Origin: Amphiscolops sp. MND2022
Taxonomy: Eukaryota
Assembly (NCBI GenBank): GCA_964187785.1
Contig: OZ076413.1
Location: forward strand, 54,870,001-54,934,000
DNA length: 64,000 nt
Direction of reading: 5' to 3'
The notes below the pieces were generated by a model. The model searched no databases and had not been told where the DNA came from. It was given only the letters and a program-made list of their open reading frames with translations. The translations under genes and the position numbers were made by a program. Of the stretch, positions 6,234 to 41,800 are shown piece by piece (position 1 is the first letter of the stretch; each line of letters opens with the position of its first letter).

Positions 6234-7057
6234 ATGTCTCTACAATTTTCTTTGGAGGAACACGATAGACCTCTAGTTAGCCTTTCGTACCAGTCATCCG
6301 ATGAAGAAATGGAAGTGGACTCAGTGTCCATTGCAGAAGGGCCTGACGGTCAAGATTCTGACGACGATATACAAGTTCTTGCTTGTTATCGTGAAAATAT
6401 ACCCTTCCCTCCACAACTCACCGCGGGTCGGGCAAGTTACGACAGAGTTAGCTCATTGCTTAAATGACCTGAACATACCAGCTGACGATTTAATTGGATC
6501 AGTAAGCACTTTTACAGATCCGTCACAAGACTTGCTCGATTGGTGTGTAGGGGGCCTCAAGAACTTCTTATGGCTCAAATGCGGATGACCACCCAATAAC
6601 GTAATGTGGCCAGCTAAACCCAATACGGGACTCACCGTGGTCACCTCCGTTAGAAGACCAAGGACCATCAGTTGACACCTACCAGCCTACGCAACCTCAT
6701 GGTTCGGCAAACTCATGGTATGGCAATTCACACATCACAGGCCTAGGAATTAGCGTCAGTGGAAGTTGTGGCCAACCGAATGAGACGACCCAAACTGGTT
6801 GCGTGATCTGTGGGAAATCATCTGCCGACATTAAAGAAGAAATAACACTGGGGTACCTTGAACAGACACACATTCCCGGAGAGACTTATGAGCAGCGGAT
6901 TGCTAGACGTGATGCATTCCAGGCAGGTATGAAAGCAGGGACGTTCATACTTGTACCGGGGGGAGTGTCGCAAGCTGCCGCTTGTGACGGCGTCCTATAC
7001 CAAATGATGCCAGAAGGTAATGAGACACTACCAGCACCCGGGGTACTACCTATCTAA
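6234..7057 (+). pseudogene. E1 sense accessory ORF3 (acidic N-terminus, CVIC motif, ends inside U3)
   Basis: Homologous to E2 24946-25778 (SSDEE; CGQLNPIRDSPWSPP vs CSGLIPLVDTPMSPP; CVICGKS...PGGVSQAAACDG). TAA near 6602 where E2 has TTA; frameshift(s) upstream. Confidence 0.78.
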
Positions 7058-11311: not shown

Positions 11312-11641
11312 GGGGAAATGGACGATTGAGTCCCAAATGCAAAAAGCGACAATTGAGTCCCAAAACAAATTGAGTCCCAAAATACATTAAATTTAGGGGG
11401 TCGACAATTGAGTCCCAAATAATTCAGATATGAAATATTATTATAACGTAGTCAGATATGTTCACATACCCCTAGTGCTCTAAATGCAGGAGCGAAGCGA
11501 AGCGGAGCGACGTGCCATATGGCCATGCCTCAATGTTGCTACTTGGCGAAGGGAGCGAAGCGACCGAGCCATACAACAAATATGCAACCTTTTCAATTGT
11601 CGCTATTTATATTTGGGACTCAACTGTCGGCATTTGGTAAG

Positions 11642-13279
11642 TGTCGCAGGCGGCCGCCTGCGATGGCAACCTCTATACCATAGACCACAGTATGCCAATT
11701 GCCCTACCCGGAACATTACTTTTATAACTACAAGGATAAATAACTTTGAGAACATTATTTCATTTAATATTTGCAACACATGTAAACCAATTTATGTATT
11801 TTATTTGTAATATGATTGATGTTTGACAGCAAGCTATACTGACAGGCAGAAAGGAAACGAGTTCAAATGTTTGCCTGTTAAGTATAGCTAGCATAGCCGC
11901 GCACGGCATATTAGCCAATCATAGCTCATCTTGTTTTATTTGTAGTTGTAGTAATGCATTCACTTATTAATCAGAATGGACCGTCACGGTCACTTGGCCT
12001 AAGCGGACTAATTGCATTTTGTTGCTATACTGAGTTGCTGTTAAATAAATAGAACAAAGCGGATGCTGTCTTAATGGCTGAACGGCCTTACTTGTCCAAA
12101 TGTCGCTAGTGCTACTGCTAGAGAAATAAGGCCCTATGCGGCCAGCGGACTAAATGAGTATTCTCATTTGTTAATATGATGAAATCGATGCTATTATTGA
12201 TATGTTAATGAAATACGTGTTATGTATTACTGAGTGTTCAACCTCATGTAAACGTTAATATGTAGTGTTACTTCCCCTGTTTAATATGATAACATGGGGT
12301 TAAATGGTTCCTCGCGACAATAGACCGTGTAGGACCGCCATGAATCATTTTGCATGTAAAACTGTTGCTTACATGAATTTGTATATCTGAACATTTTGAC
12401 CTATATGCAACGTGGCCCTGCTAGGCGCTTTGATTTAGCCGCCTATATAGGTCCACGCTGACGTCATGTAGCTATTTATAGTTCTGATGTATCTATTTTT
12501 AGCCTGTGTGCTATTTTTAGCAGCATGACCATCAGAATTGCGGACGTCATGCTGTCTTGAGTATATATATGCCCAAGTTAGCCCACAATTTTAATGATTG
12601 ATACGATACGGTTATTATTCAGTTATTCTTTTACTGAGAGTACAAGATTCACTGTAAACCCAACAAACATTGTCCACAGGAACAATTTACTTATTTTCTC
12701 CTGGAAAGATATTTTCAATGCCGTCTACAAGAAAACAAAAGGCTAAAGCCAGGAGGTCGAGAGAGTTAGACATGTTGTCCGACTACGGTAACATGGACGT
12801 GATGCTAGGCGAAGGTAATTCTAACTCTATAGAAAGAGAGCTAGATAGTCTCATTAATGTCCCTGAAGGGCCGCAAGACTTCAGGTCATTTCCTAACAGG
12901 GAAAATTCATCTCAAGAAAATGAGATTAGAGATATTGATAACAGAAACGAACCAGTTAGAGAAAGTAGACTAACAGAATCAATTAATATGTTGTCTGGAG
13001 AAATGAATGCTAGAATGTCTCGTGAAATGGAAACAATGATGGATTTAATGCAATCACAAATCAGTAGCGCTATTAGCTCTGCCATAAGTGAAAGGATTAT
13101 TCCTGAGATACAGAACATGGTGGAAAACTTGCCTTTGAGTCAACCTGGCGCTGGACCGTGTATGTCCTCAAATGAGGATGGAATGAGAAATGTATGGAAA
13201 AGCTCAAATACGAAATTAACAAAGAAGGACTCAAGGTCTGCATGCGATCTGAGGGACCATGTGGACCCTGTTCCTTACA
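11642..13279 (+). repeat. E2 5' LTR
   Basis: Direct repeat of 25693-27330; about 8 substitutions seen by eye (about 99.5% identity); TATATATA near 12564. Confidence 0.97.
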
Positions 13280-13292
13280 TGGTGACAGGAGC
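13280..13292 (+). promoter_or_regulatory. Putative primer-binding site TGGTGACAGGAGC; priming tRNA not identified
   Basis: TGG immediately follows the LTR CA; lies inside gag coding sequence (codons M-V-T-G). Confidence 0.75.
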
Positions 13293-14410
13293 TAACGAAC
13301 CCCAACAGCACATTCCTGAATTCCTCACAGGACGAATTCACTCCCAGCCCGACCTTCAGAGACAAGAATCCGCGCATGATACAACCCTCGACACAACCCT
13401 ACCAGTGGCGGAGCCCGTTACAGCCCAACTGTCGCAAGACCCCATCAACCGATTGGCAGATGTCCTGGTAAATCTCCAGAACAAACCACAGTCGATGACA
13501 ATTCGACCGGTCACGACGAACCCTATGACATTTGACGGCAAAACAGAGAAATTCGAATTGTTTGAAGATTCATTTCATACAATGATAAAAATGCAACCCG
13601 CTATGACTGAACAAATGAAAATAAATCATTTTCATTCATTGCTCAGAAAAGGGGCCCTGCAAACCTTCCGAAATATAAACTCTATAAACCGTCAAACATT
13701 GGAAGACGTACTTATCATTTTTCGCCGCAAGTACGTTAAACCAGAGTCCCAAGCCACAGCCAAGCACAAGTGGCACAGACTCATTTTCGATCCCAACACG
13801 ATGAAACTACCCGATTTTCTCGAAAACTCAATCAGGGTGCCGAGAAAGCCTTCGGGGAGAACGCCAAGAGTATGATCGATAGCCTCTTATATGCTAAATT
13901 ACCCCCAAAACTCAAAAGATCGGTGAATATGGCCCGACTGGAAAACGGGACCTACGAGGAGATTGTGGCACATTTAGAAAGAGAACTCGAATTAAACGCA
14001 TTAGAAGAATCTGATGACTTGCCAATAGCTACAATGGCTTCATCGTCAGGAAAAGCACGAAACCTACTATCCAATGGCATCGACACCAACAAGAATAACC
14101 AATGCTCATACTGCAAGGCTGAAGACCATTTCTGGAAGAATTGCCCAAAACTGAAAAAGAAGAAAGAATCAGAGGCCAAGAATGGCAAGAAGCCTCAACG
14201 CCAAACTTACCCAGAATGTCCTACCTGCAGCAAAACCAATCATCCAGCAGAGAAATGTTGGCGCGGTGCTGGGGCCCACCTTCGTCCAAAACGAAATAGA
14301 CAGGACTCCTCAAAAGACACGGAGCCCTCAGAGGACGAAGGCACTCGTACCAAAAACGAAAAGCCCACCACATCCACATCAAACCAGTCCAATTTGAAAA
14401 AGACTGATTC

Positions 14411-14417
14411 AAAAAAC
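14411..14417 (+). promoter_or_regulatory. Putative -1 ribosomal frameshift heptamer A AAA AAC at the gag/pol junction
   Basis: Fits the X XXY YYZ pattern directly before the gag stop (TAA 14418-14420); pol is open in the -1 frame from here. Confidence 0.72.
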
Positions 14418-17400
14418 TAATTTTGCCACGACTCCAAATATGTGACCGAATGTCGATACGACAATACGTCATATCAGACCCTGCTAACATTACCTACAAG
14501 CAATCACAAAATGACATCAATGAGACTCCATCGACTGTCTGGCAGCAGCAGATGGAGGAAGCATATACTGAAACTCAATATATCATAAATAGTGACCACC
14601 CATACTTATACCGACGTAATAGCCACACGAAAGACTCTGAAACCCAATTCCGACCCTTACAAACTGTCGAAGACTATAACCCTCACTACTATGACCCTGA
14701 GTACGGCAGAGACCCGTACTGGGACGATGACATATACGACAAACAGAACTTACAATTCCGAAACGATGATTACCCTCCTACGGACGATGAAGATGATCCT
14801 GAGATTCTAGATAACGCACTGTCCCGGGCACTCATCGAACTGTGGCAACCAAATTTTGAGGCAATCAATGATCAGCCTCATGCAATAGAGACACAGGCCG
14901 CATCCGGCCTCCTAGATGAGACGGCCTTCATACATGTCCTTGTAAACAAAGAGGGAGAACCGGCATACATACCCCTATCAACGAACCTTGGACTTAAATA
15001 CAAAAAACGGATGCTATATTCCCCAATGGACTTTGGGGAATTGACCATAGACGGACTTATCGACACTGGAGCTCTGTCAAGTGCAATACCAGAAGCAGAC
15101 CTCAGGAAAATACGCTTACTAGCGCCTCAATCCATAGTCAAAGAGGGACCTGCGCCAACATTCCAAATCATGGTCGCAAATGGTCAATTAGAAACCCCAA
15201 AGAGCACTGTTGAACTCAAGTTCGAAGTTGGAGACATTGAATTCCACGAAATCTTTATAGTGATGGAAAAACTGACCGGCCCCATTATAGGACTAATGTT
15301 CCTTCAAAGGAATCACACAGTCCTGGACATGCGACAAGGCATCCTTAACTTTCCCTATTTCTCTATGCAACTTAAAACGGCTGACCACAAATATTCAAAC
15401 GTCTTGGAACCTATACTTAACCCAGACGATGTTACAATACCACCCAATGACCGTACTCTAGTAGAGATCAAATCTCAGATATATAATGAAAATTCGGTCA
15501 CAGGGGTGTTACAACCCAGTGATCTTCTCCACGAGGAGAGCGACATCACATTTTGTGCCGCAATAGTCACGTTGACTAATGGAAACGTCAGCGTTCATAT
15601 TAACAATTTCTCAGACCAACCTTACAAGCTCAAAAAGGGACTACACATAGCGAATTTTTCAGTACTAACGCCGGAACAGATGAAACACGTTAAACCAATA
15701 GACCCGGTGTCCACTTGGCATCTTCTCAACGAAAATGAAGAAGACGCGATCTATTACGTCAGTAGTCTACTTAAGGCCAACAGAAACAATGACCAATACG
15801 AACAGTACTGGTTTCCAACCCCAGAGAATCCAGGGGACGAAGATTCCCACACTCCCATCCAACGACGAATTCTCCAGGAATTACGCAATCTACAAGAAGC
15901 TGAACAGCTGGACCCTCAAAACGATGAGGAGTCACGACATAAATTTCTTAGCAACTTTGACTGGAAGGACTCGATGCTACAACAGCACGAAATTAAAAAG
16001 ATTGAATCGCTCCTAGTTGAATACCATGACATATTCGCCAGACACAGATTTGACATCGGGATGAATGAAGAATTCACGGTCAAACTAACCCCCAAGGACG
16101 ATTCGCCCGCATATAGCCAAAGTCTACCCACCCCAGTCAACTTAAAAGAGGACATCCTCGTCGAACTGGCCCTTTTACACAAATATGGCATCATAACTAC
16201 ACTGCCATTTTCTAAATATGCCAGTCCCATATTCGCACAGAAGAAGCCGAATGGGAAACTGAGACTTTTGGTCGACCTAAGGAAAATCAATAACCTTATT
16301 TCGGACGACTACATAAACAACAATCATCCAGTTAGCACATTGACGGACGCCGCACAGCATATGGCAGGAAAGAAATTATTCTGTAAACTTGACTGTTCAC
16401 AGGCGTACCATTGCCTTCCAATGGCGGACCAAAAGTCCATCGAGATGCTTGCGTTCAACTTTGCGAGCCGCACTTTCGCCTACAGAAGACTTGCCCAGGG
16501 CCTTAGCAGAGCATTATCAGCATTTTCAAGCTTTATGCGAGAATACCTTGATAAAGTTATTAAAGCAGATCAATGTGCTCAATATGTCGATGACATCGGC
16601 ATAGCTGCCAACGACGCTGATCATCTCATCAAAAATTTGAAAGCAACGTTCGAATGTATCAGACACGCAGGCCTTAAGCTAACAATGCACAAATGCCATT
16701 TTGGGGCGACAGAAATTGACTTCCTAGGAAGAACAATTACTCCCGAAGGAGTCAAACCACAAAAGGAACAAATAACAACCTTTCTGGAAAAGACCAAATT
16801 CCCCAAATCCAAAAAGGCCCTGCAGAGATACCTTGGTTTCCTCAACTATTACAGGAACTATATACCAAGATTATCTGAGAAACTAGCCCCCTTCTTCCAA
16901 CTCCTCAAAAAGGACGAGAAGGTACTCGTGACCACGGAGCTAGTACAACAATTCAACGAAATTAAACGAGATCTTGACAAATGTAGCCAATTGGCCCTGA
17001 AGCAACCTCTCCCAAACAAACAGCTAGTCCTGATGACAGATGCTAGCTTTACAGCGGCAGGCTACGCGATACTTACCGAAGACGACCCAAATCAAAAATT
17101 CACTTCTGTCAAAAAATCGTATGCTCCAATAGCATATGGATCAAAGACGTTCACCCCATCACAACTCAAAATGTCCATATACGCCAAAGAATTCTTAGCT
17201 ATATATTATGCATTCAAAGAATTTGGACACATATTTTGGGGAACACCCAAACCGACCACCATCCTCACGGACAACAAATCGGTAACGAGGTATTTCCAAA
17301 CGAAAATAATACCTCCAGCGCTATGGAACGCGTGTGACTACGTTTTACAATTCAATTTTATCATTGCCCACATTCCTGGCAAAAACAATACCGCGGCGGA

Positions 17401-19621
17401 CTATTTATCTCGAATGGAAATGGATCCTAAAGAAAAATTAGTCCTGAAAATCCGCGAAGATGTGGAAACACGGCCCATTGAGGTAAATGTCCAATCAGCT
17501 GGCGTATCAGAAGAGGAGCAAATTTTCTTCACAGAGGATGATGGTGAAACAGAAGCCCAAATTTGGGAACGCAAAAAACAAAGCCGTACCAATTCAACCG
17601 ACCAGGAGGTCGTAATCCAGATAGACGCAATAACTGAAAATATAGTTGATGAAATTACAAACTTTACACAAAAGTTCTGCCGAACGAATCAAATACTGCT
17701 CGAACAGTCTAAAGACCCTACTTTGCAACAACTCAAAGCAAAAATACAAAACGAAGATTATTCTGAAGAAACTCTCCAACAGGACATTCGATACAAACAC
17801 TATCTCAACAATTTGGTCCGAATAGTCCTTAAAGACGAAATAGTCACGCGACAGTACTATGATGAAACTGGACAAATCAAACACCACCAAATTCTCTTAC
17901 CAAAACACCTATTGAAAGAACTTTTAAACGCATTGCACGGCACCGCGCACAAGCATCCCGGCATATCAAAAATGCTACGGGAAATTCGTCAGAAATACTA
18001 TTACCCAGGTATAGCAAAACACGTCAAAAAATGGGTAGAGGGGTGTGAAACTTGTGCAAGGGACAAACGTGTTCCAAACAACACAATCACCCCTGAGTTG
18101 CTCAACTTGCCTGAATGGGACCTCGGACCGGAGGATGCAATGCAAATTGATTTATTACCAAATCTACCAACAAGTGGAGGCTACCAAACCGTGATGACAG
18201 CGATAGATGTTTTCTCAAGATACCTGTTTGCCTACCCGTTAGTAGAAGCTACCGCTTCAAACACAGCAAAAGTTCTGATTGACATCATGACAAAACATAC
18301 ATATCTGCCGACAACAATCATCACTGACAAAGGAACCGCTTTCACGTCAAAAATTATCGCAGAAATAACCGAAATTCTCGGAATTACACTAAGATGTGCA
18401 ACGACTAAACACCCGCAAACAATCGGCAAACTAGAGAGGACACACGCCTCTTTAAAGACTAATTTGAAGATGGCCTCAGGGGAATATCGCCGGCAATGGC
18501 ATAAATACCTACCACTGGCAGTACTCAATTACAATACCACCTACCACTCCAGTATTGGTTGTGAGCCAAGTAAGGTCTTCCACGGACGAATTCCCTACAA
18601 CGTCCTAGATCATAAACTTGGAAATAATCCTAATAAAGATTTCTTGCCTACTACGGAATTTGCGGAAGAATTACAACAGAGAACACAAATTCTCATTGAC
18701 AAAACGAAGCAAAATATCATGCAGTCATACTTGAAATACAAGGAATACTATGACCGGAAGGCCAAGGCAGCTTCCCTTAGTGAACAATATTTTTGCTTTA
18801 TTCTGCAACCCAAAGCAGATAATTAAGGATCAAAAATACCCTTTAGGGAGTACCACTGGATCGGTCCCTACAGAATTGAAAAGGTATTACCTAATGACAA
18901 TTACATTGTTAGACGGTTAAATACAAATAAAACACAGATATTACACCGGATTCGTCTGAAAAAATTTGTTCCAAACACACCCTTAGAGGACAAATATTCC
19001 AAAGAGAAATTGCAACCAGATGAAGAAATAATCATTCCGCAAGATGATTTATATACCATCTCTTGGGAAGCAGACTTTGATTACCAAGTCTTCGGGCCGA
19101 GACGGGACGATAACACGAATGAAGAATTACAAATAGACAACGACGCTAGTACTACTACTCGTGATTACGTCATTGATGAAGACGCTGATCACAACGCAAG
19201 AAGGCCGGGAACGGCCACCAGCCGAGACAGCACAATTACGCGAGACGCAAATGACGTCACCGAAGGGAATGAAAATGAAGCAAGACCGAGTACGGCAAAT
19301 AGCCGAGACGCGCGTACATTGAATGACGATGATGACGTCAATGACAATACTGCAAACGACAAAAGAAACAGTGAAAATGAAAGGCCGAGTACGGCCACAA
19401 GCCGAGATAACCAAACTTATGGCGACACGCCTACTGAATTGCACAATGAAATTGATGATAGTACTAAACGTTCTCCTAAAAGAGGGGAGGATGATCCCGT
19501 GCCCGGAATATCGGATGATGAAAGAAATGAAAAAATAGAAGGAAATTCAAGCCCTAGAGGAGGGAAATATAATCTTCGACCTAACCCCACCCCCAACTAT
19601 ACTGACGAATACAGATACTAG
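14414..19621 (+). pseudogene. pol: E2 pol: protease, RT, RNase H, integrase, low-complexity tail; single in-frame stop at 18824-18826
   Basis: LIDTGALSS (protease); YVDD (RT); LMTDAS (RNase H); H-H-C-C and D,D,E integrase motifs. The frame continues uninterrupted after the TAA into ORF 19010-19621. Confidence 0.95.
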
Positions 19622-19796
19622 TCAGAAATGTTAAATTATGTCCCTATTTATTTTACTGCCCAAGAAGGCATGTTTTTTACTGGGACTACTCTGACTTTTG
19701 ACTCAAAAGAAACTAACTATATAAATACAGAGACAAGAAACAGAACTCAAATTTACAAATAAAAAGTCTACAATGGCAAATGTACAATATGTAGAC

Positions 19797-22700
19797 TTAG
19801 TCTTTAGAGCTACCTTCTTTTGGATTTTCTTCGGCCTTTGAAGTTTCAGTGGGAATTATACTTCCAAAGAAAGCGGGCTTCTGAGAACTCCCAGATTCAC
19901 GAACAACTTTATGGCCTGCTGTGGATGAAACTGAAGAGCAACGTGAAGGGCCGGCAATTACCTTAACAGGAGTAGGCTTGAGGCCTTTAAAAGTCGTCAT
20001 TAAACTCTTCTGAAAGGCTGAACGCCCAAAAGCATCCACGTGCGTCCAGGGATCCCCTGCGAACTGACCAGAACTAAACTGACTATCCATTTCGCGAAAT
20101 TTGGCAATGGAACTCTCGGAGGTGCAGTAGCTGACGGACTGAGAACAATTGGCCAAATAAGACTGAGCCGGTAAGAGCATATCTGTGAAACGGCATTTGG
20201 GCTTGGACGTATCCACTTCATGGAATTTAATAGCTGGAAGTTCAGTACCACTCTCAGTAAGGCAGAGGCAACTAAGCCGAAATAAGTGAAACAAACTTTT
20301 GCGACTGCGTAAGGCAGGAAGGGCAACGAGAAAACCGACCATATCTTTCATTTGGCCGGGCACGTCCTTAAGCTGAGGGAAATTAGCTCGAAAGTGATCC
20401 ACGAATTCCATGTATTCGTCTCGATAATCAGCCTCTGAAGAACGCTGTACCCATCCGCGAAGGGCAAAGGTCTGGAAAAGGGCTCCAAAACAGAACGTCA
20501 CTTGCTCCATTGGCAGGGAAACCAGAGTGTGGGGATCAAAGCAAGCCAAGCCGTGGACAATGTCAGCTGTAAGATGGACGTCACGAAGTATTGCCTCGAG
20601 CAAAAAGACGAAGTACCCTCTGGCATTCGTCGCAAAATTATCCCTTTCGGCAACTAGCAGACCACTAAATTCATTGGCACTAATGTTAGGGTCACTGCGA
20701 GACTGACGGATTTTGGCCTTGCAAACGAGGTCGATGTCGGTGACAAGCTTCAGCCGGTGCAGGAAATCTCGGCAAGATAATAACTTTAAATCATCAGGGC
20801 ACAAATAAAGCATTCCAGTCCAATCCATGTCGCCAGGGATACACTTAGGAAGGACGGCCCGTGAACAAAGTTTTCGTAGGAAGCGACAAAATTGTCCGAA
20901 AGTGAAGAAGGAGGCATCGGCTTGCCCAGACAGACTGCGTTCGAAGCACTTGACGTCTAAACACCACATATATAGCGGGGAATCAGAGGAAAATAGAAAT
21001 GACCAAAAGGTCATACTTACAATCACGGACTATGAGACCGAAGATCTCCAACTTGATAGTGAAGTACTCATCCATCAGAATCATCCACTCAAGACTTTGT
21101 GGCTGAAAAGGTCTATGAATAAATCCTCGGAGTGAAAGTTCAAATAACGCTTAGGGAACTACTATTCTTGAAACCATAAACGGAATTTTGACCAGGAGGT
21201 GGAAGACAAAACCATAATGTTCACGCTCAACATTAGCTGTAAAAGCCTAATCAACTGAACAATAGGAAACTCACCCTGCCTCGAACTCCCTGTCCGGATT
21301 GGGAAGGTGCATCTTTAGTCATGAAGTCACGAATGTTTGGCCACTGTGCAACAATTTCCCCACATAAGGCTGGAATGCTTTGCAGATTCAGATCACATGA
21401 AGTAATGGCCTGAAAAATACACAATCATTGCCTGTATGCAACTCTGACCTTACCCGTCCCTCACTCCTTCACTTGTACAACCAGTTGTTCAGTGCTTAGA
21501 AGATAAGATGAGAAGAAACTAACCGTCGAGAGATTGGGGCAGTCTAACATCCAAGTTTGGCTAAGACCTTTGACGAGGAAGACGGTTAAGTACTTGACTT
21601 GAGAGAAGATATCGATCTTTCCAAAGAAACATTCGTACTTCTGATGCATGAGTTTTGGCAATGAAAGCACCTCGAATCTGAAGGGATATTGCAGGGAGAA
21701 CTTGAAAAGGTCACTTCGGTCAAGGGTTTGCAACACGGCGGAAGGACAGCCGGACACGCTGACTAAGTTAGGCCCGGCGGAGACGAAGGACAGCAATCGT
21801 GAAATGGAACCGAAGAAGTTCCCAGGGTACGAGGAAGCCAGCGGGTGTCTGCACAGCTCTATCCGCTGGATGGCATCATCCCGCCAGAAACGCACGGCCA
21901 TGTAACAGAAGCCTTTGCGGTTCGTAAACTCCAGAGAGTAAATGCCTTCTGTGGTGATCTGTCCTGCTATATCTTCAGTGCAGCGTAAGAAGACGTGATG
22001 GAAGATTTTCGGGAAACAAAATTAATATTGTTAGCACGGAACGTCCAAAAGGGTCACCCTGGCCAGGGAGTTAATGTAATACTTACAGTGAGGTTGTCAG
22101 ATCTCCAATCGAAATCGGAGAAGAACCCTTGGTGGGTGGCTAGTGAAGGTTCCGAATCGTGTCCACAGATTTCTCAGTAGGGCTAAATCACCTCCGTGTG
22201 GGGCAAAGAGCCCGATCAAGGAAATTTGGGTAGTCATTCGGAGTTCATCTGGACTGGATGTTCCTCCCATTGTTGCAACGTAATCGTCGTAAAATGGAAA
22301 CTTGTCTCCAATATCGACGAGGGGGGCATCAATAAAAAACTCTTCTCTTTCTCCAGTTGTAGAGGAGTAAGTATGTACCCGTCCTTCCCTCGGACTTGGT
22401 GGGTCACCTTGCCAGTTGTAGCATCTATTTCTCTGAGGTGTTCATACCTCCATTTTTGGTAACGTCGCAGGTGGCCTTGAGTCTTGTAATGGCGAAGGAT
22501 CTCTCGGCCGCCTTTAGAATATATTGATATGTTTGTTTTACATATCTGGCAATAGAATTTGTAACGATTATGTAAGGGATCAAGGGGTCCTGAGACAAAA
22601 AGCCTTGTCCATTGGATGCCCTTAAAGTAGGCATCCTTCATGACTTTGCCTGGTTTGCAAAGCATTCTCCTCCGCTTACGAGGAGGACTAGAATCTGCCC

Positions 22701-23850
22701 CAACGGGGGCTTGTGCCTGCGAAAGAGAAGCTAAAGGACGGTAATCACCACTGCTGTAGCTGCTGCCTGAACAAGGGGTCAGTATCCTGGCTGGATCATG
22801 TTGATCTGCCGCCATGTCGAGAGTCTTGGAAGCGGAAATGATAGGTGGGCAGCCTTCGGACACAGTCTCGATGTTCCTCATGTCCTCATCAGTGTCCATT
22901 GCCCCGCTGGTGTAGCCGTCACTTTCGATTCCCGTGCTCTCACCTCCAGAGCTGGACTCGTACCCAGGGCCGGGAGTTGCAGACCTGCGAGGAATATTTC
23001 GCGAGGTACGCTTGTTCAGAGGGATCCCCTCAGTTAACTTTATCAGTAGCGATTTCATCATGTGGAATGACGACAGCACTGACTCATCAGCTATGGTTCT
23101 CAGCACGGCATGAACCTGACTTTCACTAAAGGCAACAGTTGGATGACCGGCTGGCAGCTCGACAGGCACGTTCGTTGTGAAGAACTTACGGATAACTTCT
23201 CTCCCGGTTGGTGATAGGTTTCGTTCAGTCGAAAGCATCTTGTCCCGATAGGCAGCTTGTTCAGCATCACTATTCCTTGAAGACTGCTGCAAATCCTCGT
23301 CAAGGCTTGTGAATAAGTCAGGATCAAATGAGAAAGTGCCTAATTTAGTGGTAGGCAGATCGACTCCAGAACTGTCGTACAACTCTCCCGGGTCACTGGT
23401 ATCAGAGTGCAAAGCCCTATACTCAAGAGTTCTTGTTCGGGATTCTTCACTATTGCCCGGGACCGGCTGTGGTGCTTTGGTAATTTCTAAAGTTATCGAC
23501 TCAGAGACTTTAGGAGCTCCATGTGTGTTTTCCTCAGCCTCAGGGACTTTGGGAGCCGCGTGTGGATCTTCTTCAAGGACGGTGTCAAGGGGTGTTGTTG
23601 ATGCACCTGGAAACTGTGAGACAACTTTCTCAATATAGGCGCTTACACTCTCGTCAGTTGAGTTGGACGCCTGGGATTCGGGTCGCACTTCTTTTTCTGG
23701 CACATTTTGGAATTGGGCCGGTTCATGTTCTTGTCCCTGACCAATGGGAGCAATGGTAGGATTGGTGGATTCTGGCAACCTCTCTTCGTTAGACATCTCT
23801 AAATGGAAAGAGACAAATTTTAGCGGGTAGCTTCCTGAATATGAATCCAT
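19797..23850 (-). pseudogene. E2 antisense 5-exon accessory gene (BED-type Zn finger plus hAT-transposase-like body). Exons 23850-22087, 22009-21524, 21409-21275, 21102-21021, 20956-19797.
   Basis: Introns of 77/114/172/64 nt with donors GTAAGT, GTTAGT, GTGAGT, GTAAGT. Acceptors 2-4 are TTTCAG, TTTCAG, TTTAG; acceptor 1 reads CG in this copy, with CTAAC upstream. Frameshifts near 22337 and 22133. Confidence 0.87.
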
Positions 23851-24945
23851 GAGACCGCTTTACAAATCTTCTAGAAGTAAAATTGAAACATACGGCAAAA
23901 CGCTTATGCTCTTTGAAACAAATGGACAGGAAGTATTACGAGCGTGAACAGGTCCTGATCAAACCTATTTCCGTTCAAAAAGAAAAGACCAGATAGCTAA
24001 CCTGACATTGCAAAAGATTTGAATCGGATGTAGTCCAGAAGGACAATTGACAGGAAGATGGAGAAGGGAGACTGATGCTGTTACGAAGAATAAGGCACTT
24101 GGACCCCAAGTAGGAAATCCAACTTCAAAGAGAAGTCGTCTGCTGTCCGAGTATGGCCAAAGAGTAGAAGGCTGATAGTCCAATAGTGAACTTGATAATA
24201 ATAAGTAACGGACCAGAAGACTAACAACTATACTAAATAGACAATGTATAAATACGGAAGTGGTTAGAATTTGAATGGATAAAGTAACAATTGAATGAAT
24301 GACGAAGATTGCTGAAAGAAGAGTTGGAGTTCGTGGCAAACTGGAATTGATGTCAAACAATTATACAATTATAGGTGTCATTTTGTGGATGGAACCTGCC
24401 AGAGAAATCCACAAAGTTATCCTCAAAATCTTATTTTACCACGGATCTATTATTTTACAGTTATTTCATTATTTTATTTATTTCCTTATTTGGAATATTT
24501 TTATTTCGTCCGCCATTTCGGAATGCGGATACCAATGGCGATTCTTATTGGCTATCGCGGCGATGAGCCGCGCGTGGCCTCAAATCTTGACTATTAGCTC
24601 TTGAAAGTCTCAAGTGGATGTTGAGAGCTGATAAACACTTAAAGGTGCCATTGATGTCTTCAAGCCGCATTAGGCAAACTGCTGAAGTAACGATGTAAAC
24701 AAAGCGGCACGTTGGGGTCATCAAAGGTTGTTTGGAAGGAGTTATCGATATGAATGTTAACAGGAAGGCAAAACCCCGGGAAAGGAGTCACGGGTTTCGA
24801 AGTAAAAATCTTAAACGAAATCAAGAAAAGAAATTGTCATTCTCTCTCTTAAAGCCTACAAGTGCAGTTGGTCTTACAACTGAAATTCATAAAGTTGACT
24901 TCAATTTTCTACAAAATTGCGAAAAAACTGATAAAAACGCGATAC

Positions 24946-25778
24946 ATGGCTGATAGATACCCGCAAGACTTTTGTGGCGCTGCGCCCCGAAGGATAGAGC
25001 TAGTATATCTGTCCAGTGATGAAGAAGAGGAAATGGACGCATTTAGTACTACATCCGTAATGGACCTGCAACTATCGTCAGAAGATGAGGAATACGACGA
25101 TGAGATCTTGATGATGGCACAATGCGTCGAAATGCAACTGTCAACGCCTATACCTGTCCCTGGGCCTTCTACACCGAAAACGGACCGCCCTAACCTATTG
25201 AACAGGCCGTCTGAAAGCAAAAAGCCTAATCTGACACACAGCCCTAGTCCCGTCCCAGATCAGTCTTTCTTTTCATTGGGAAGGGGAAAGGGCCCGATAA
25301 GGCGTGATGATCGCATAAGGAATAACCACCCGATAAAGTTATGCAGCGGACTAATCCCTCTGGTGGACACACCAATGTCACCTCCCCCGGAAGAAAGAGG
25401 GCACTGTAGTTCTTTTTTCGACAACTATGCCGAGCGGCCAGAGTCACAACAATCTCTCGACGGAATTACAAATCATTTCCAAGGAATGGGACTCAGTGGG
25501 TCGGGCCATTAGTGAACTACTCAGACTGTGTAATATGCGGGAAATCGACAATGCAAATTCAGCAAGAAGCAGTTGCGGACTACCTGGTCAAGACGGCTAT
25601 TCCCGCAGAAACAGCACTACAAGTCGAAGCACGTAAGAGAGCCTTCATTGAAGGGATGCAGGTTGGCACATTCTTACTTCTCCCAGGGGGAGTGTCGCAG
25701 GCGGCCGCCTGCGATGGCAACCTCTATACCATAGACCACAGTATGCCAATTGCCCTACCCGGAACATTACCTTTATAA
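24946..25778 (+). pseudogene. E2 sense accessory ORF3, about 275 aa, ending 86 bp inside the 3' LTR; frameshift near 25505-25512
   Basis: ORFs 24862-25512 and 25512-25778. The homologous E1 segment is one continuous frame across this junction (HITGLGIS...GCVIC vs HFQGMGLS...DCVIC). Confidence 0.8.
25685..25692 (+). promoter_or_regulatory. E2 polypurine tract AGGGGGAG
   Basis: Purine run abutting the TG of the 3' LTR; same arrangement in E1. Confidence 0.85.
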
Positions 25779-27330
25779 CTACAAGGATAAATAACTTTGA
25801 GAACATTATTTCATTTAATATTTGCAACACATGTAAACCAATTTATGTATTTTATTTGTAATATGATTGATGTTTGACAGCAAGCTATACTGACAGGCAG
25901 AAAGGAAACGAGTTCAAATGTTTGCCTGTTAAGTATAGCTAGCATAGCCGCGCACGGCATATTAGCCAATCATAGCTCATCTTGTTTTATTTGTAGTTGT
26001 AGTAATGCATTCACTTATTAATCAGAATGGACCGTCACGGTCACTTGGCCTAAGCGGACTAATTGCATTTTGTTGCTATACTGAGTTGCTGTTAAATAAA
26101 TAGAACAAAACGGATGCTGTCTTAATGGCTGAACGGCCTTACTTGTCCAAATGTCGCTAGTGCTACTGCTAGAGAAATAAGGCCCTATGCGGCCAGCGGA
26201 CTAAATGAGTATTCTCATTTGTTAATATGATGAAATCGATGCTATTATTGATATGTTAATGAAATACGTGTTATGTATTACTGAGTGTTCAACCTCATGT
26301 AAACGTTAATATGTAGTGTTACTTCCCCTGTTTAATATGATAACATGGGGTTAAATGGTTCCTCGCGACAATAGACCGTGTAGGACCGCCATGAATCATT
26401 TTGCATGTAAAACTGTTGCTTACATGAATTTGTATATCTGAACATTTTGACCTATATGCAACGTGGCCCTGCTAGGCGCTTTGATTTAGCCGCCTATATA
26501 GGTCCACGCTGACGTCATGTAGCTATTTATAGTTCTGATGTATCTATTTTTAGCCTGTGTGCTATTTTTAGCAGCATGACCATCAGAATTGCGGACGTCA
26601 TGCTGTCTTGAGTATATATATGCCCAAGTTAGCCCACAATTTCAATGATTGATACGATACGGTTATTATTCAGTTATTCTTTTACTGAGAGTACAAGGTT
26701 CACTGTAAACCCAACAAACATTGTCCACAGGAACAATTTACTTATTTTCTCCTGGAAAGATATTTTCAATGCCGTCTACAAGAAAACAAAAGGCTAAAGC
26801 CAGGAGGTCGAGAGAGTTAGGCATGTTGTCCGACTACGGTAACATGGACGTGATGCTAGGCGAAGGTAATTCTAACTCTATAGAAAGAGAGCTAGATAGT
26901 CTCATTAATGTCCCTGAAGGGCCGCAAGACTTCAGGTCATTTCCTAACAGGGAAAATTCATCTCAAGAAAATGAGATTAGAGATATTGATAACAGAAACG
27001 AACCAGTTAGAGAAAGTAGACTAATAGAATCAATTAATATGTTGTCTGGAGAAATGAATGCTAGAATGTCTCGTGAAATGGAAACAATGATGGATTTAAT
27101 GCAATCACAAATCAGTAGCGCTATTAGCTCTGCCATAAGTGAAAGGATTATTCCTGAGATACAGAACATGGTGGAAAACTTGCCTTTGAGTCAACCTGGC
27201 GCCGGACCGTGTATGTCCTCAAATGAGGATGGAATGAGAAATGTATGGAAAAGCTCAAATACGAAATTACCAAAGAAGGACTCAAGGTCTGCATGCGATC
27301 TGAGGGACCATGTGGACCCTGTTCCTTACA
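25693..27330 (+). repeat. E2 3' LTR
   Basis: Direct repeat of 11642-13279, followed by the GTAAG TSD. Confidence 0.97.
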
Positions 27331-27454
27331 GTAAGTTCGTCAAAGTAATTTGTTTGGGACTCAATTGTCGCGGGACTCAATTGACGCTTTTTGCATTTGG
27401 GACTCAATTTGTATTGGGACTCAATTTGTTTTGGGACTCATCGTTGCCTCACCC

Positions 27455-32304: not shown

Positions 32305-35300
32305 TTGTTTTTGAAATTTAAGTGTCATGCAATTAGTTTCCGTCCAGTCACTTTGGCTTATTGTGATGGCTTTGCTGCCAAGAAGTTCGTTTATACCACT
32401 GGTCGTACTGCAAGTACATTGATTGAGCTACCGGATTTTTCAACGTTCAGTGAAACGGCAACGAAAAAGGAGTTGGACTTACTGCGCCGCTTAGATGACA
32501 TTTATGCGGAGACATTGAAAGCTGGTTACAGTTTTGTGGCTGATGCATTCGGTGGCCATACCCTCACGACACTGCACCAGAGGTTAGGAGACAATGTTCT
32601 TGCCTTTCCAGTTGGACTGGTCGCTAAAATCAAGCCTAGCCGAAGAGCACCTCTTCGATGATACATCTACCGTTGCTCCCACAGAATTATGCAAATTGCC
32701 CAGACTTTTGGCAGGCACCATTCGTTTCGTCAATTCCTCTTGTGATCATAATTGCCGATATGAGTTCACATCTTCAAATGGAATACCGTGTGTGAGATTG
32801 AAAACTTTGAGAAATATTCAACCAGGAGAAGAGTTAACAGTCTTTTATGGGAAACACTTCTTCGAAACACTTGAATGTCAATGTCCGCATGTACATCTTC
32901 ATGAGCAGGAGTTATCTGATCTTTCTTCCAGTCTGTCAATGTCTCCTCAGTCACGGAACAAAAAATGTAGAAGACCCCGTATTTCCTTGTCGGGGTTTAT
33001 GGCACTCCCTGGTGTAGAGACATCGAAGTCCTATAAAAGAAAAAGAACTGTCCGTTTGAACAATTCTCCCAGAGACTCAGAAGATTTACGCTTACCGCCA
33101 ATGGATGAATCCACTGATCTTTATTCTGAGGATTTTCCAATTGAACATCTCGATGTGGTACAACCGTTAGATTCTTCGACTCCCATTCATCACAACGAAA
33201 ACACTGATGATGCTTTTTTCCACATGGTCTTTTTGCACAATCTTTCCGGTTCGAGCAGTGAAAGATCAGTTGTTACCCAGCATTTGATCGCTGATGCTGA
33301 AATCGGGCTCAAAAACCTCAAAGTGTGTTTAACTGCAAATGGCTCCAAGCATCGGGCATCGGACGCGCTGATGAACGATGTGTTGAAAGTTTTCCGTCGC
33401 CTAAAACCCGACACTGATTTGCCAGGAATAAAAAAATTCAAAAAAGAGAGTCGGAAAACGTTTCTTGAGAACACATACAGCCAGGTTCCTTGTAATTTAG
33501 GTGGGTTGATACCTTTGAGGTTTTCGTTGGAATTGAAAGAAATATGCTGTCGAAATTGGGAAATTTTGGTGGAACGATCTCGGAGTTTAATTTCTAATTC
33601 CAGAAACGACATCAGACTTGGAAATTTTATCAATGGAACTGAAACAGCTATTACGCTGCACTTGATTATTTCGACCGATGGCGTCAAAATCATCCATTCT
33701 TCGGGTAAACATCTCTACCCATTGTGGATAATTATTGCTGATTTGCCTCCGGTGTTGCGTTTTTCTTTTGACAATATTGCTCTCGCGAGTTTGTGGTTCG
33801 GTGATGGCAAACCTGATTTCGAAATTGTTTTCCAGTATGTCCAAAGAGAGATCACAGATCTTAAATTTGTTAGCCACGAGGGTTTTTCGTATGCTGCAAA
33901 TGTAGAATTCGTCTTTCTCAGTGCCGATAATGTTGCCAAAGCTGCAATACTCAACATGAAGCAGTTTAACGGTTATTTTGGCTGTCATCTTTGTGAAGAC
34001 GAAGGCGAAATCGTCTCGCACAGACAGCGAATTTATCCGTGTAACACTGTTATCAAGATGCGGACTTTCGAGTCATATGAGAAAAACCTGTCCGAAGCTC
34101 AAAAACTAGAAGCAGCGGGCTTTGATCTTGGGTCAAAATCTTTCCGCAACCGAACCAAGGGTGTCAAAGGTATTGAACAAAGATATATGTCGAGAATTAA
34201 ATCGATATTTGAACGAGAAAAAAACTGAAATTCATATGGATTCCCTTTTGTGATATGAATTCTGTTTACAACAACAGATTTTTCAAGTTTTTGGATGCTT
34301 TTTCCAAATCAAATGTTTGCACAAAGCTCTATACCCTTAAGGTAGAAGCCCCCTAACTTTGATCACTAAGAGGATGCCTTTCTTCGTGACAATCGATTAC
34401 ATGCACACTGTTTGCTTGGGTGTAGCTAAAAACTTTTTGAATCACATGTACACTTCTTTACAACCCATGGAAAGGAGAATCGTGAACCAAAGAGCCAAAG
34501 GTTTCAAAATTCCGTTTGAGTTTCAACGATCGCTTTGTGGTTTGGACCAAATGTCGCATTTCCACGCAAGTGAATTCAAAACGTGGCTGTTGTATGTCGC
34601 ACCTGTAGTGACGTTGGATTTGTTGGCTGAAAATATCAGTAACTTGTTGTGGAAGTTTTCCTATGCCATCCGAATATTACTTGAAAGTGACAAGCATCTG
34701 ACAGAGTGTGATCAGTTACTCAACGATTTTTGTGCCGGTTTTGCTGCCATCGACAGTGCTGAGCAAACATTCAATTTACACTCCTTGCGTCGTCTCACTT
34801 GGCAAGTTCGAAACTATGGCCCCTTGTGGACAGCATCTTGCTTTGCATTTGAATCGGCCCACCACTCCCTTGTTTCCGCATTCACTGGATCTGTAAACCA
34901 TTTGAGGTTGCTGGTAGAGCGGTACCTGGTCAAGAAGTCACTTCTGAGAACAAATCTTGAAAACGACGCTCTTTTTAATTTGACTTCTGAGTTAATTTCG
35001 GGCCGGAAAAAAATTGGACAAGGACACTTGAAGGATACCGATGATGTTCGAGAACTTTGTAGCCGAGCGTCTTCAGTGTCAGCGAGAGAAGTTCTGAATG
35101 GACTCGCTTTTGATTCAGCCAGTGATACAAAATCTAACTCCAACTCTTTCATTACTTTCTCTCCCATTGGTGCCGACCAACTCATATTCGGTCAAGTGAT
35201 TGCTTTTTTCCGTCGTGGACGACGTAAATTCTGTCTCGTTGAGCTTTACGCTGTGCAAAAACCATTCAAATGTCCTGGTGGCGATCGCTTATCTTGTGCG

Positions 35301-35432
35301 TTTTATCACGGAAAAAGAACCAATGAAAGAATTGATTTACCTTGTGAACGAAATTTGGGAAAACTTATTGTATTCTCCATCGAGCACCAGAACATTTTGA
35401 ATAAATTGTCTTCACACTTTGATCACAATTAG
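32305..35432 (+). pseudogene. SET-domain (Suv4-20/KMT5-like) fused to a CMC/EnSpm transposase; intron 34170-34341; +1 frameshift near 32641
   Basis: SET motifs RFVNSSCDHNC, GEELTVFYG and CQC. Transposase motifs IISTDG, KPDF, AKAAILNMKQFNGYFGCHLC, IDYMH, NYGPLW..SCFAFES. The phase-1 GT..AG intron restores KGVKG-RSPL...IDYMH. Confidence 0.88.
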
Positions 35433-38429: not shown

Positions 38430-40419
38430 GTCGGCTTAGCTTCGATGGTTTTTTGGCTGACTCCTGGGAATAACGTTGCATTGGGACAATCTCATTCTAA
38501 CATTGCTAGTTTTATTATCCATTTAATTGGTTTGAATAACTTTTTGTTCAAGCAATAGAAGTTGGGAGATAACCTTTTTTATTCACGTTTTTTTCACATA
38601 TTTTACTGTGGAATACATGTTCCTGCATGCATCTTTATTTATCTTTGAAATCCATTTTCAGTCCCTCGACTTTAACTGTCCCAGGACCTTGACTGTTCTA
38701 CAAGCTCGAGACCTTCGTTTCGTGTCTGTTACAATGCATTAAACACAAAAGACATAAAGTTTTTACATTTTTGAAAAATTCGACATTTTTGAAATTTTCA
38801 TTTACTACTATCTGTACCCCATATGTCAAAAACGCCACAGAAAAAATTTTTAATTGCTTTAAGTTGGAAAACTTGGTATCCATGGTTTCTGTCGGAAACT
38901 AATTGCTGCCAAACACTTAACAGTTTGCATCCAATGTGGAATTAAAATTTTTTTCGAGGTCTTAGGTGTTTCACAAGGATTTCCAAAATTAGTTTCAATT
39001 TACAAATTGGTCATTTTCAACATAATATTTTCATCCAGGCGTGTCGGCAATAGCTTTTATTCTCAAGAACGGTTGTACTGGCAACGTAGGAACCATTTAT
39101 AGTAAAAGAAACTTTAAAAAAATATTTTCACCCGTTCTTCAGTCATTTTGCACACATTCGGAACGTAGAAATTTTTCGACCGAAATACCCATTTTTTGTC
39201 AGGTCGAAAATTCAAATTCAGCTTTTTAAGCAAAATTATTAACTCTGGCGTAACCAGTGGGGCCCATGATACTCAAAAACACGACTGGGACTGGTATCAG
39301 TTGCTTCAATATCATATGAGACGTGATAAGACGTTATTCAGAGCAAAAGCTCTAAATCGAAGTAAATATCTCGGAAGCTGGGATCACAGTGAAGAGTGAT
39401 ATTATCAAAAGTTAACTCATTTTCGTCAATCACTATGTACAAAGGATGCGTAGGATGAGTTTCAGAACTATAAGGAGGTTTTTGAAGGAATCGGTCTGCT
39501 CAAGGGATGGTATGAATCATTTTTTTCCCAGATAGCACTGTATTTTCCAAAATTTTTAGCCCAATATCTCAAAACACTTCGCAATATACTTTCAATTACT
39601 TTATTCAATGTTTAGAATATAGATGAACACTGTGGTTGATCAGAAACACTCATCTCTTTTGTTTTCCGAAATAATTCCCTTCGCATGTGTTACATTTGTA
39701 GCAGAATAAAAAGCCGAAGCTAAAAAATACGCTATTTTGCTGAGATAGAATGGCATTGATCGTGCCAAAAAAATCTTTAAATACTTCTAACATAACCTTA
39801 CGGACCCAAAATGATTAAAAATAATCACAATGCTGACATGTGCTCTTTCTACGATCCTGGCTGGACAAGTTTTGCATATTCTTCAAGTACCTGTTAGCTG
39901 AATCTTGTGATGGCCTTTCAACTTGGCCTTGTGTCAACTTGAGAAAGCTGTCACATCAAAAAACTGTCAACAAAAAGCCCATTTGTTTATAGGATGTTGC
40001 TGTCGATGCCTAATTTCGTGATTCGATCATATCGTTAGTTCCTTCCATCGGGTCAGATAACGATTGCATTCGGTCTTTGATTAAAAAAAATATAAACTCA
40101 AAGACATTTTTTAAAATTTTTTTGTCGAAGAAAGTACAAATCAAAATGAAAAACACATTTCTCACCCTTCAAAAGCATAACATTTACTTTTCCTAACGTT
40201 ATCGGTCCCACCCTCCCGGTACGGCTTCGCCGTGTCTGTAGTACAACGCCACATTGCGTTCCGACGCCCACCGTCCGTGGGCATGCCGAGGCATGCCCTT
40301 CGACGACGTATGGCAAATTTCTTTTTTTGTGTGCTCCTGAGCGCGGTAGCGGCTAGTTATCGTTATACTCGTAGTTCAATGGTAATTAGTGTAATAGGTT
40401 TTTCGCATATTTTAGACCT

Positions 40420-41416
40420 TCAGTCACCGCGTACTAACGGTTTTCTCGGTTTGTTCTGTGGAAAACGTATTTGGGCTGTGCATATTTTCCGATTGCTTCC
40501 AAGTTATTTTTGAAAAACCTTATCTTAATGTTTTTCGCGTAATCTGTTTATCAAGTAAATGGCATGTTTCAGGCCTTTAGTCACCCGTACTAACGGTTTT
40601 CTTGGTTTGTAGATATATGTTCTGTGGAAAAATTATCTCGGTTGTGCATGTTTTTCGATTGCTTCCGCGTTATTTTTGAAAAACCTAATCTTAATGTTTT
40701 TCGCGTAATCTGTTTATCAAATAAATTTCATTTTTCAGGCCTTTAGTCACCCGTACTAACGGTTTTCTTGGTTTGTAGATATATGTTCTGTGGAAAACGT
40801 TTTTGGGCTGTGCATATTTTTCGAATGCTTCCGCGTTATTTTTGAAAAACCTAATCTTAATGTTTTTCGCGTAATCTGTTCATCAAGTAAATGGCCTGTT
40901 TCAGGCCTTTAGTCACCCGTACTAACGGTTTTCTTGGTTTGTAGATATATGTTCTGTGGAAAAATTATCTCGGTTGTGCATATTTTTCGATTGCTTCAGC
41001 GTTATTTTTGAAAAACCCTTTTTTTAATGTTTTTCGCGTAATCTGTTTATCAAATAAATTTCATGTTTCAGGCCTTTAGTCAGCCGTACTAACGGTTTTC
41101 TTGGTTTGTAGATATATGTTCTGTGGAAAACGTTTTTGGGTTGTGCATGTTTTTCGATTGCTTCCGCGTTATTTTTGAAAAACCTAATCTTAATGTTTTT
41201 CGCGTAATCTGTTTATCAAGTAAATGGCATGTTTCAGGCCTTTAGTCACCCGTACTAACGGTTTTCTTGGTTTGTAGATATATGTTCTGTGGAAAAATTA
41301 TCTCGGTTGTGCATATTTTTCGATTGCTTCCGCGTTGTTTTTGAAACACCTAATCCTAATGTTTTTCGCGTAATCTGTTTATCAAATAAATTTCATGTTT
41401 CAGGCCTTTAGTCACC
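40420..41416 (+). repeat. 166-bp satellite, about 6 copies, with alternating A/B monomers (332-bp higher-order unit)
   Basis: GGCCTTTAGTCA at 40572, 40738, 40904, 41071, 41237 and 41403. Confidence 0.95.
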
Positions 41417-41800
41417 CGGGTTTTCGATGATTTTAGATCAAATTGATCCAGGTTCTAGATCGTATTCCTATTTTAGTTGCTGATTTCCATAATTCTGCAG
41501 CTATTTTGCCAAAATTTTAGATATTATTCTCAATAGAGGCGAAAGTATGCATAACTTAGTTTCGTTGTCTTGAAGTTTTCGTTTATAGATCAAATTGACC
41601 TAGCTTTTAGATCTAATTCCTATTTCAATAGCTGATCTCCATAATTTTGCAGCTATTTTGCCAAAAATTTAGATATTATTCTCATTATTCTCAATAGAGG
41701 CGAAAGTATGCATAACTTAGTTTCGTTGTCTTAAAGTTTTCGTTTTTAGATCAAATTGACCCAGCTTTTAGATCTGATTCCTATTTCAATAGCTGATTTC
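41417..41800 (+). repeat. About 150-bp tandem repeat, same family as 28860-29298
   Basis: GGTTTTCGATGATTTTAGATCAAATTGATCCAGG is identical to the sequence near 28890. Confidence 0.87.

Follow-up and report, generated by a model that had tools for sequence, protein, structure and literature searches.

A 3' accessory gene of a Gypsy-type retrotransposon family in Amphiscolops appears to be selected as protein through the polypurine tract and into U3

Introduction

Accessory reading frames at the 3' end that reach into the U3 region of the LTR are a feature of several retroviruses, among them sag of MMTV, which encodes a membrane glycoprotein, and bel/bet of the foamy viruses, which use an internal promoter. 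The lentiviral nef gene overlaps the T-rich region, the polypurine tract (PPT), the att site and the U3 of the 3' LTR (PMC11076291, available part). Among retrotransposons, the plant Ty3/gypsy elements Athila, Bagy2, Grande, RIRE2, and Retand carry conserved sense or antisense ORFs, mostly of unknown function, between pol and the 3' LTR (PMC7264820, available part). In the bdelloid rotifer elements Vesta, Juno, and TelKA, pol includes a dUTPase, and ORF3s other than env are also known; the rotifer ORF3s comprise env, GDSL esterase, DEDDy nuclease, and coiled-coil or TM proteins (PMC5408684, available part). The Gypsy-type element Cer1 of C. elegans encodes CERV, a phosphorylated nuclear accessory protein which is needed for export of the genomic RNA (PMC10309623, available part).

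Here, we analyze ORF3 of element E2, located in a window of 64,000 nucleotides from Amphiscolops sp. MND2022 (contig OZ076413.1, positions 54,870,001 to 54,934,000), to which all coordinates refer unless stated otherwise. Like nef, ORF3 is an accessory frame extending over the PPT and the att site into the U3 of a 3' LTR. Unlike nef, it resides in an env-less Gypsy retrotransposon whose gag starts in the LTR, its overlap amounts to approximately 85 nt, and its product has an acidic N-terminus and a SIM-like motif. Unlike Sag, the product has no membrane segment. The parallel to nef and MMTV sag drawn in the original prediction holds for the layout and goes no further: Pfam and a PDB profile search gave no homology to Nef or Sag, and structural comparison, made with models of low confidence, gave no significant fold match to either. 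In comparison with the plant ORFs, the antisense gene and the sense ORF3 occur here together, and ORF3 runs on through the PPT to end in the LTR; no such crossing is described in the available part of PMC7264820. ORF3 matches none of the Pfam families of the rotifer ORF3s, for which the available part of PMC5408684 mentions no overlap with the LTR. It shares with CERV the setting in a Gypsy-type element and, as a prediction, the nuclear role (PMC10309623, available part). A literature search of partial coverage yielded no report of this family, of a Gypsy reading frame that continues across the PPT and enters U3, or of an LTR retrotransposon devoid of a PPT.

Results and Discussion

Element E2 and its family

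E2 spans 15.7 kb (11,642-27,330), with limits set by the alignment of its LTR pair and by a 5-bp target-site duplication, GTAAG (11,637-11,641 and 27,331-27,335). The 5' LTR (11,642-13,279, plus strand) and the 3' LTR (25,693-27,330, plus strand), each 1,638 nt in length, show 8 differences when aligned. A primer-binding-site-like stretch, TGGTGACAGGAG (13,280-13,291, plus strand), has TGG at its start and is identical in four other copies. The pol gene (14,408-19,621, plus strand) encodes protease, a weak dUTPase-like match, reverse transcriptase (RT), RNase H, and integrase, and contains one in-frame stop (18,824-18,826). The dUTPase-like domain lies between protease and RT at about 15,420-15,665, with a Pfam E-value of 6e-4, just under the cut-off; for two relatives PF00692 (dUTPase) is given. 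E2 thereby shows the marks of a Ty3/Gypsy element: direct terminal repeats of the form TG...CA, a short target-site duplication, a primer-binding site, and the order protease, RT, RNase H, integrase. All of the 120 RT relatives listed, of 402, are without names.

Pol is followed by an antisense gene (19,797-23,859, minus strand), by ORF3 in sense orientation, and by the 3' LTR, a layout repeated in all four other copies examined, which come from three lineages. The antisense gene has about three open frames, perhaps exons, and bears a zinc finger; it occurs a second time in the window (136-4,499, minus strand), is found throughout the family, and shows 30-50% identity between lineages. A possible resemblance to hAT/BED transposase proteins is a lead only, the Atlas scores of 0.76-0.79 being below the reliable range. 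The genome comprises 1.07 Gb, and each search returned thousands of first-look candidates, about 150 of which were scored. ORF3 is linked to the family's pol, and its host element is a high-copy Gypsy-type family.

The gag gene begins within the LTR. In E2 its ATG is located at 12,718, and the last 562 nt of the 5' LTR code for the Gag N-terminus, with the frame continuing through the primer-binding-site-like stretch. All four 5' LTRs checked (12,718-13,279 of the window and the LTRs of loci L211, L213, and L215) share this phase, with about 187-215 codons running through U5 and the primer-binding site. As the initial 86 nt of the 5' LTR repeat the tail of ORF3, both ends of the LTR are protein-coding.

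E2 is flanked by 44-nt inverted arms (11,325-11,368 and 27,365-27,408) and thus was seemingly inserted into a small inverted-repeat element. Elsewhere in the host genome, pairs of ORF3 matches lie about 14 kb apart on the same strand (C1:103,351,472/103,365,794; C4:51,533,819/51,547,737; C8:59,478,562/59,492,856), which suggests tandem elements sharing an LTR. The window further contains a broken gag-pol (43,228-47,905, minus strand), which from its translation we take to be Pao/BEL-like, presumably transposase-like frames with a SET-like start (32,588-35,432, plus strand), tandem arrays of 166-nt (40,341-41,471) and 561-nt units (55,307-56,764), a near-perfect long inverted repeat (51,262-53,149), and fragments of a distant Gypsy-like element (59,409-62,311, plus strand), whose RT is too far removed to root a tree.

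The ORF3 frame crosses the polypurine tract

From its first ATG to the stop codon (25,776-25,778), ORF3 occupies 24,946-25,778 on the plus strand. The protein has 277 aa in unbroken sister copies and about 255-285 aa across the family; in E2 itself the frame is shifted near 25,503. Among the nearest copies, 14 of 17 carry a single frame of 302-308 codons, and 174 of 219 distinct copies have 225 or more open codons immediately upstream of the LTR, a proportion raised by the protein search that supplied these copies and favors intact ones. The original prediction that the two ORFs of E2 are one protein is thereby confirmed, on better grounds than a comparison with element E1 (lineage B; ORF3 at 6,192-7,057, plus strand; LTR at 6,966-8,514), which is itself frameshifted twice, near 6,436 and 6,555.

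The PPT of E2, AGGGGGAG (25,685-25,692, plus strand), has 8 nt and codes for P-G-G-(V). Positions 25,683-25,718 read P-G-G-V-S-Q-A-A-A-C-D-G, with the LTR boundary inside the valine codon (G|TG), so that the PPT encodes P-G-G, the LTR start encodes V-S-Q-A-A-A-C-D-G, and the frame passes through PPT and att site to end in U3, all as predicted. Since each round of replication would copy the 3' U3 to both ends, every LTR would carry the last 27-35 codons of ORF3. A solo LTR at 57,194-59,081 (plus strand, flanks CATGG/CATGA), previously described as unrelated-looking, belongs to a third lineage (C) of the same family, whose 3' LTRs are preceded by the same ORF3 gene. Its tail is indeed kept and reads SQATACDG...PGTLPIF*, one residue longer than had been noted.

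Purifying selection inside the LTR

From fetched loci we kept the records in which the CxxC and the motif of the LTR start share a frame, 244 in all. In one set 45 of 210 loci, mostly solo or 5' LTRs, were dropped, and in the other 5 of 72. Omission of 7 records with tails outside 24-38 codons left 213 distinct copies, which formed 61 clusters at 93% identity, each represented by a real copy. Comparisons were made between non-overlapping pairs whose upstream identity was 68% or more, giving 13 independent pairs from 29 multi-copy subfamilies. The distance from the CxxC to the LTR is 166 nt in 244 of 244 in-frame records, in a search which allowed a range of 30 codons.

From LTR nt 27 to the stop, pN/pS is 0.20 (pS 0.63, pN 0.12), pN is smaller than pS in 13 of 13 pairs, and differences at codon positions 1, 2, and 3 number 38, 31, and 128 in 260 codon pairs. 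The upstream ORF3 domain shows 0.10 (pS 0.67) in the same pairs. When all 61 representatives are used (25 pairs), the values are 0.13 upstream and 0.21 for LTR nt 27 to the stop, the latter with the same sign in 25 of 25 pairs. Read in the +1, the +2, and two antisense frames, the LTR stretch gives pN/pS above 1; the antisense frame that shares the wobble positions gives 0.29 and is interrupted by stops in 61 of 61 representatives. Fisher p-values take sites as independent, and sampling by protein similarity inflates intactness and lowers the pN/pS within subfamilies (0.21-0.23 for private changes), a value not relied on here. In 17 LTR copies found by DNA search only, minority bases are distributed 17/17/33 by codon position. 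Where tail length could be measured in DNA-found copies, the differences are whole numbers of codons in 23 of 24, a pattern that slippage in Thr-codon repeats could yield as well. Stop codons cluster at 27-35 codons into the LTR, a PGxLP-type end is present in 49 of 61 representatives, and after the stop the alignments turn gapped in most pairs. In E2, the selected U3-encoded part comprises the last 19 codons and the stop (25,719-25,778, plus strand) and ends in PGxLP.

The values beyond LTR nt 27, the frame controls, and the counts from DNA-found LTRs argue that ORF3 is selected as a protein well past the att site. Disappearance of the synonymous bias after the first 10-15 bp, which had been named beforehand as counting against the idea, is not what we find. 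On this evolutionary evidence ORF3 appears to be translated, and it is almost certainly a real gene under selection through U3: an accessory gene for which the substitution pattern indicates purifying selection through the PPT and about 85 nt into U3. Between lineages, ORF3 shows 28-45% identity over its last 163 aa, versus 84-99% for RT-RNase H; such fast divergence fits a host-facing protein.

A second reading of the same bases

The start of the LTR can form a 9-bp stem with a 4-nt loop (LTR nt 2-23; 25,694-25,715, plus strand) over the codons V-S-Q-A-A-A-C-D, a feature overlooked in the original prediction, as were the upstream start and the PPT-less lineage treated below. Synonymous divergence falls to 0.13 at the PPT codons and to 0.09 at LTR nt 1-23, as against 0.63-0.67 elsewhere, so that synonymous change in the hairpin is lowered about sevenfold. 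Among 360 cells at LTR nt 2-23, 98.3% are paired, with many G-U pairs. Covariation in the hairpin does not exceed that of shuffles, 49 of 500 of which reach the observed value. Only one change is two-sided, A8-T17, which 4 of 61 representatives from two supported clades show; the same pair appears once as A8-C17 and twice as G8-T17. Mean stem probability, in a context of 120 nt, is below 0.5 in 14 of 61 representatives. The main argument for the hairpin is the suppression of synonymous change.

The drop of pS at the LTR start together with the inverted repeat indicates that the first 25 bases of the LTR serve two purposes, coding for protein and acting as a cis signal, the latter being an RNA hairpin or a DNA palindrome. 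Because the PPT, the att site, the hairpin, and the codons use the same bases, the overlap is fixed where it is. Across all lineages, hairpin and LTR start are nearly invariant. Two metagenome contigs (L301, L302) with distant ORF3s share the LTR start and keep the tail, as does the P0040 group from outside the scored matches of the host genome, whose best match to the host genome is 45% over the full protein.

This double reading affects the comparison of E1 and E2, whose differences had been taken as nearly all third-position and as a sign of codon-level selection. Over 14 codon pairs, counted from the PPT proline, seven third positions differ and one codon differs at positions 1 and 2; the next pair, for Tyr, shows tac/tat as well. 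The bias itself is real. Its interpretation stands for the part beyond LTR nt 26, where selection on codons is found, and has to be withdrawn for five of the seven third-position changes named in the original prediction, which lie in the hairpin: since the hairpin tolerates the same changes (caa/cag with gct/gcc as a compensatory A-U/G-C pair, tgt/tgc and gac/gat as G-U/G-C, gct/gcg in the loop), these cannot by themselves establish selection on codons.

Lineage C has no polypurine tract

Lineage C comprises 15 representatives (subfamilies) with 37 distinct copies; it is supported by 100/99 on the ORF3 tree and is separated on the RT tree, too. Directly before its LTRs there are at most 2 purines, and a G-rich stretch before the LTR is found in 0 of 15 of its representatives versus 45 of 46 representatives of other lineages. 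Polypurine tracts range from 8 to 49 nt (PMC7264820, available part), a range that E2 reaches with its 8 nt and lineage C in none of 15 cases. The protein of lineage C reads A-P-A-V in place of P-G-G-V with unchanged spacing. Two full-length copies have LTR pairs that are 99.7% and 99.5% identical and perfect 5-bp duplications, from which we conclude that they inserted recently. Judged from these sequences, the PPT is dispensable in lineage C. The RT tree, for which 6 of 24 stretches gave no RT at the expected distance, is unrooted due to a far too long outgroup branch; the PPT of lineage C may have been lost or may have been absent ancestrally.

Translation probably starts upstream of the first ATG

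The start of ORF3 had been placed at 24,946; the coding signal sets in roughly 30 nt earlier. In E2, the first ATG is preceded in frame by K-I-A-K-K-L-I-K-T-R-Y (24,913-24,945, plus strand), with a candidate non-AUG start ATT at 24,916 in the context C-AAA-ATT-GC. This context resembles CAAA-ATG, the start context of invertebrates. All lineages have K-I-A-K-K-(L/I)-(I/F/L) in frame, 7, 11, 12, or 14 codons before the ATG, and the motif is in frame in 44 of the 48 representatives that have it. Of 42 representatives, 40 have ATT or ATA as second codon, and all 42 have a purine at -3 and a G at +4. Comparison of 19 pairs gives a pN/pS of 0.84 for the 8 codons that precede the motif, 0.03 for A-K-K, 0.37 from the motif to the ATG, and 0.24 beyond the ATG; as the anchor was picked by pattern match, only the stretch after the motif (0.37) is unbiased. 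In-frame stops occur as near as 3 codons upstream of the motif.

We infer that ORF3 probably has an upstream non-AUG start, AUU at 24,916. Initiator-like C/A-AGT-Y sequences lie 19-24 nt before the motif in about 21 of 42 representatives. ORF3 would be expressed from a short mRNA of its own, whose promoter would be internal, in the interval that separates ORF3 from the antisense gene, and whose end would lie in the 3' LTR; initiation would take place at the AUU, with leaky scanning to the ATG. The basic, amphipathic N-terminal extension might equally target membranes or mitochondria.

Two further candidates for the coding start were rejected: an upstream ATG, present in only 2 of 42 representatives, and a splice acceptor, with a YAG nearby in only 9 of 42. 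The want of a conserved AG acceptor before the ORF3 start is a difference to CERV, which is made from a spliced mRNA (PMC10309623, available part).

The ORF3 protein and its possible role

The protein combines an acidic N-half (net charge -4 to -20 over the first 70 residues), rich in Pro and Ser, with a conserved [ST]P.SP motif (45 of 46 subfamily proteins), a His, a CxxC followed by two helices, and the PGxLP tail. Pfam searches with both halves and 37 family members gave nothing above the cut-off, in agreement with the original statement that no domain is recognized. A profile search of 1.84 billion representatives returned 531 proteins with E<=0.001, and those looked up are without names. 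The ESM Atlas gave no usable match for residues 100-277, the best hit of the PDB profile search (E 0.34) was not significant, and 8 pattern matches in viral contigs included no relative of ORF3. AlphaFold2 runs with 19 and 37 sequences reached a mean pLDDT of 49.5 and 51.9. Most of the model outside the helix pair is below 50, so that structure prediction, suggested for the end of the protein, was informative only for the CxxC and the predicted two-helix hairpin (25,527-25,676, plus strand; pLDDT 75-88). Foldseek found no match to these low-confidence models at E<=0.001, and VIA-align reached a best Z of 5.1 over a generic helix pair, which is no sign of a new fold.

Near the N-terminus, IELVYLSSDEEEE (24,994-25,032, plus strand) consists of a hydrophobic core, SS, and an acidic run, and is a predicted phospho-SIM. 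Of 46 subfamily proteins, 26 contain the SIM-like pattern (0.86 expected by shuffling), as do 13 of 18 proteins from the database (0.37 expected); the pattern was written after the alignment had been seen, and SIMs are loose motifs. The 20 of 46 proteins that miss it, mostly of lineages B and D, have the variant LVSLSYxSSDE instead. Within the host genome, C6:22,762,100-22,762,300 (L310) holds a first exon, in part, of a host gene, which matches Pfam PF11976 and which we take to be SUMO-like. The four-residue hydrophobic core with Ser and acidic flanks agrees with descriptions of the CK2-type SIM, a motif that several viral proteins turn against host defenses (PMC12751080, available part), and in fly and worm SUMO takes part in silencing guided by piRNAs, as far as the available parts of the sources describe.

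The SIM-like motif, the viral precedents, the part of SUMO in silencing, the SUMO-like exon of the host, and the fast divergence together suggest, tentatively, that ORF3 may be a SUMO-binding nuclear regulator, which is the reading we favor. Such a regulator would most likely counter silencing, a step that is more doubtful still. On this proposal, the mostly disordered nuclear product would bind SUMO via its predicted phospho-SIM and would shield the element from chromatin silencing by the host, and the conserved Cys/His residues would bind zinc. The proposal does not account for the near-invariant last 28 residues.

Complex retroviruses place transactivators and export factors at their 3' end, the position of ORF3. 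ORF3 could accordingly be a Tat/Tas-like transactivator, its acidic N-terminus activating the LTR promoter, or a Rev/CERV-like export factor, its Cys/His domain binding the element RNA, possibly at the U3 hairpin, and exporting it. The negative charge of the first 70 residues and the conserved [ST]P.SP motif fit this alternative, as does the precedent of CERV (PMC10309623, available part), and it is partly compatible with SUMO binding, because SIM-bearing proteins can also activate. However, we noticed no basic RNA-binding patch beyond the short N-terminal extension, the hairpin, being part of U3, is placed at the RNA's 3' end instead of a TAR-like 5' position, and no homology was found. We consider it unlikely.

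Less likely again is a role in reverse transcription or integration, in which ORF3 would recognize the terminal hairpin or serve as adaptor for the antisense transposase-like protein or the integrase, and so would let one lineage drop its purine tract. It would account for an LTR start that is almost invariant everywhere, even in the lineage without PPT, and for the finding that all four sister elements inspected contain ORF3 together with the antisense gene; the profile of the Rad50 zinc hook, a CxxC between coiled coils which dimerizes around one zinc, gives a weak match (E 0.34-0.53) that points the same way. That match, however, is not significant, no observation assigns ORF3 to the particle, cis signals overlapping the tail explain why it is almost invariant, and the specificity of RNase H alone could define the primer.

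That ORF3 is an env-like or other membrane protein is very improbable: it occupies the position of env and has a mildly hydrophobic stretch before the PPT, yet no 19-residue window in 46 proteins reaches a hydropathy of 1.6 (maxima 0.47-1.59, no transmembrane segment), the N-half is strongly acidic and Pro/Ser-rich, and no env family of Pfam is matched. The notion that coding in U3 is a mere by-product of constraint on att site and hairpin, with a protein effectively ending at the PPT, is hardly credible, since the paired LTR start and the E1/E2 changes that keep pairs or fall in the loop, together with several amino-acid changes located in the loop or retaining a G-U pair, make such DNA or RNA constraint true for LTR nt 1-25 as an added layer, but the low pN against high pS past the hairpin, the clustered stops, the PGxLP-type ends, and the gapped alignments behind them refute it from nt 27 to the stop and as a full explanation.

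Significance

The tentative SUMO-binding reading can be joined with the other observations into a wider picture, very doubtful as a whole: a mobile lineage that would prime its second strand without a PPT, using the conserved U3-terminal hairpin as landmark, whose bases would at the same time specify the C-terminal part of a protein that starts at an AUU, binds SUMO, and counters silencing. If true, this would be a compact retroelement that codes for protein at either end of its LTR and brings along a counter-defense against SUMO-dependent silencing.

The PPT-less clade offers a natural experiment on what RNase H needs for defining the plus-strand primer, and annotation tools that require a PPT would miss lineage C. 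ORF3 represents a protein family without match in the libraries searched, with a testable link to SUMO-dependent silencing of transposons. The best reading of the arrangement itself is that a nef-type overlap evolved independently in an animal retrotransposon without env and has persisted in lineages with ORF3s that are only about 30% alike.
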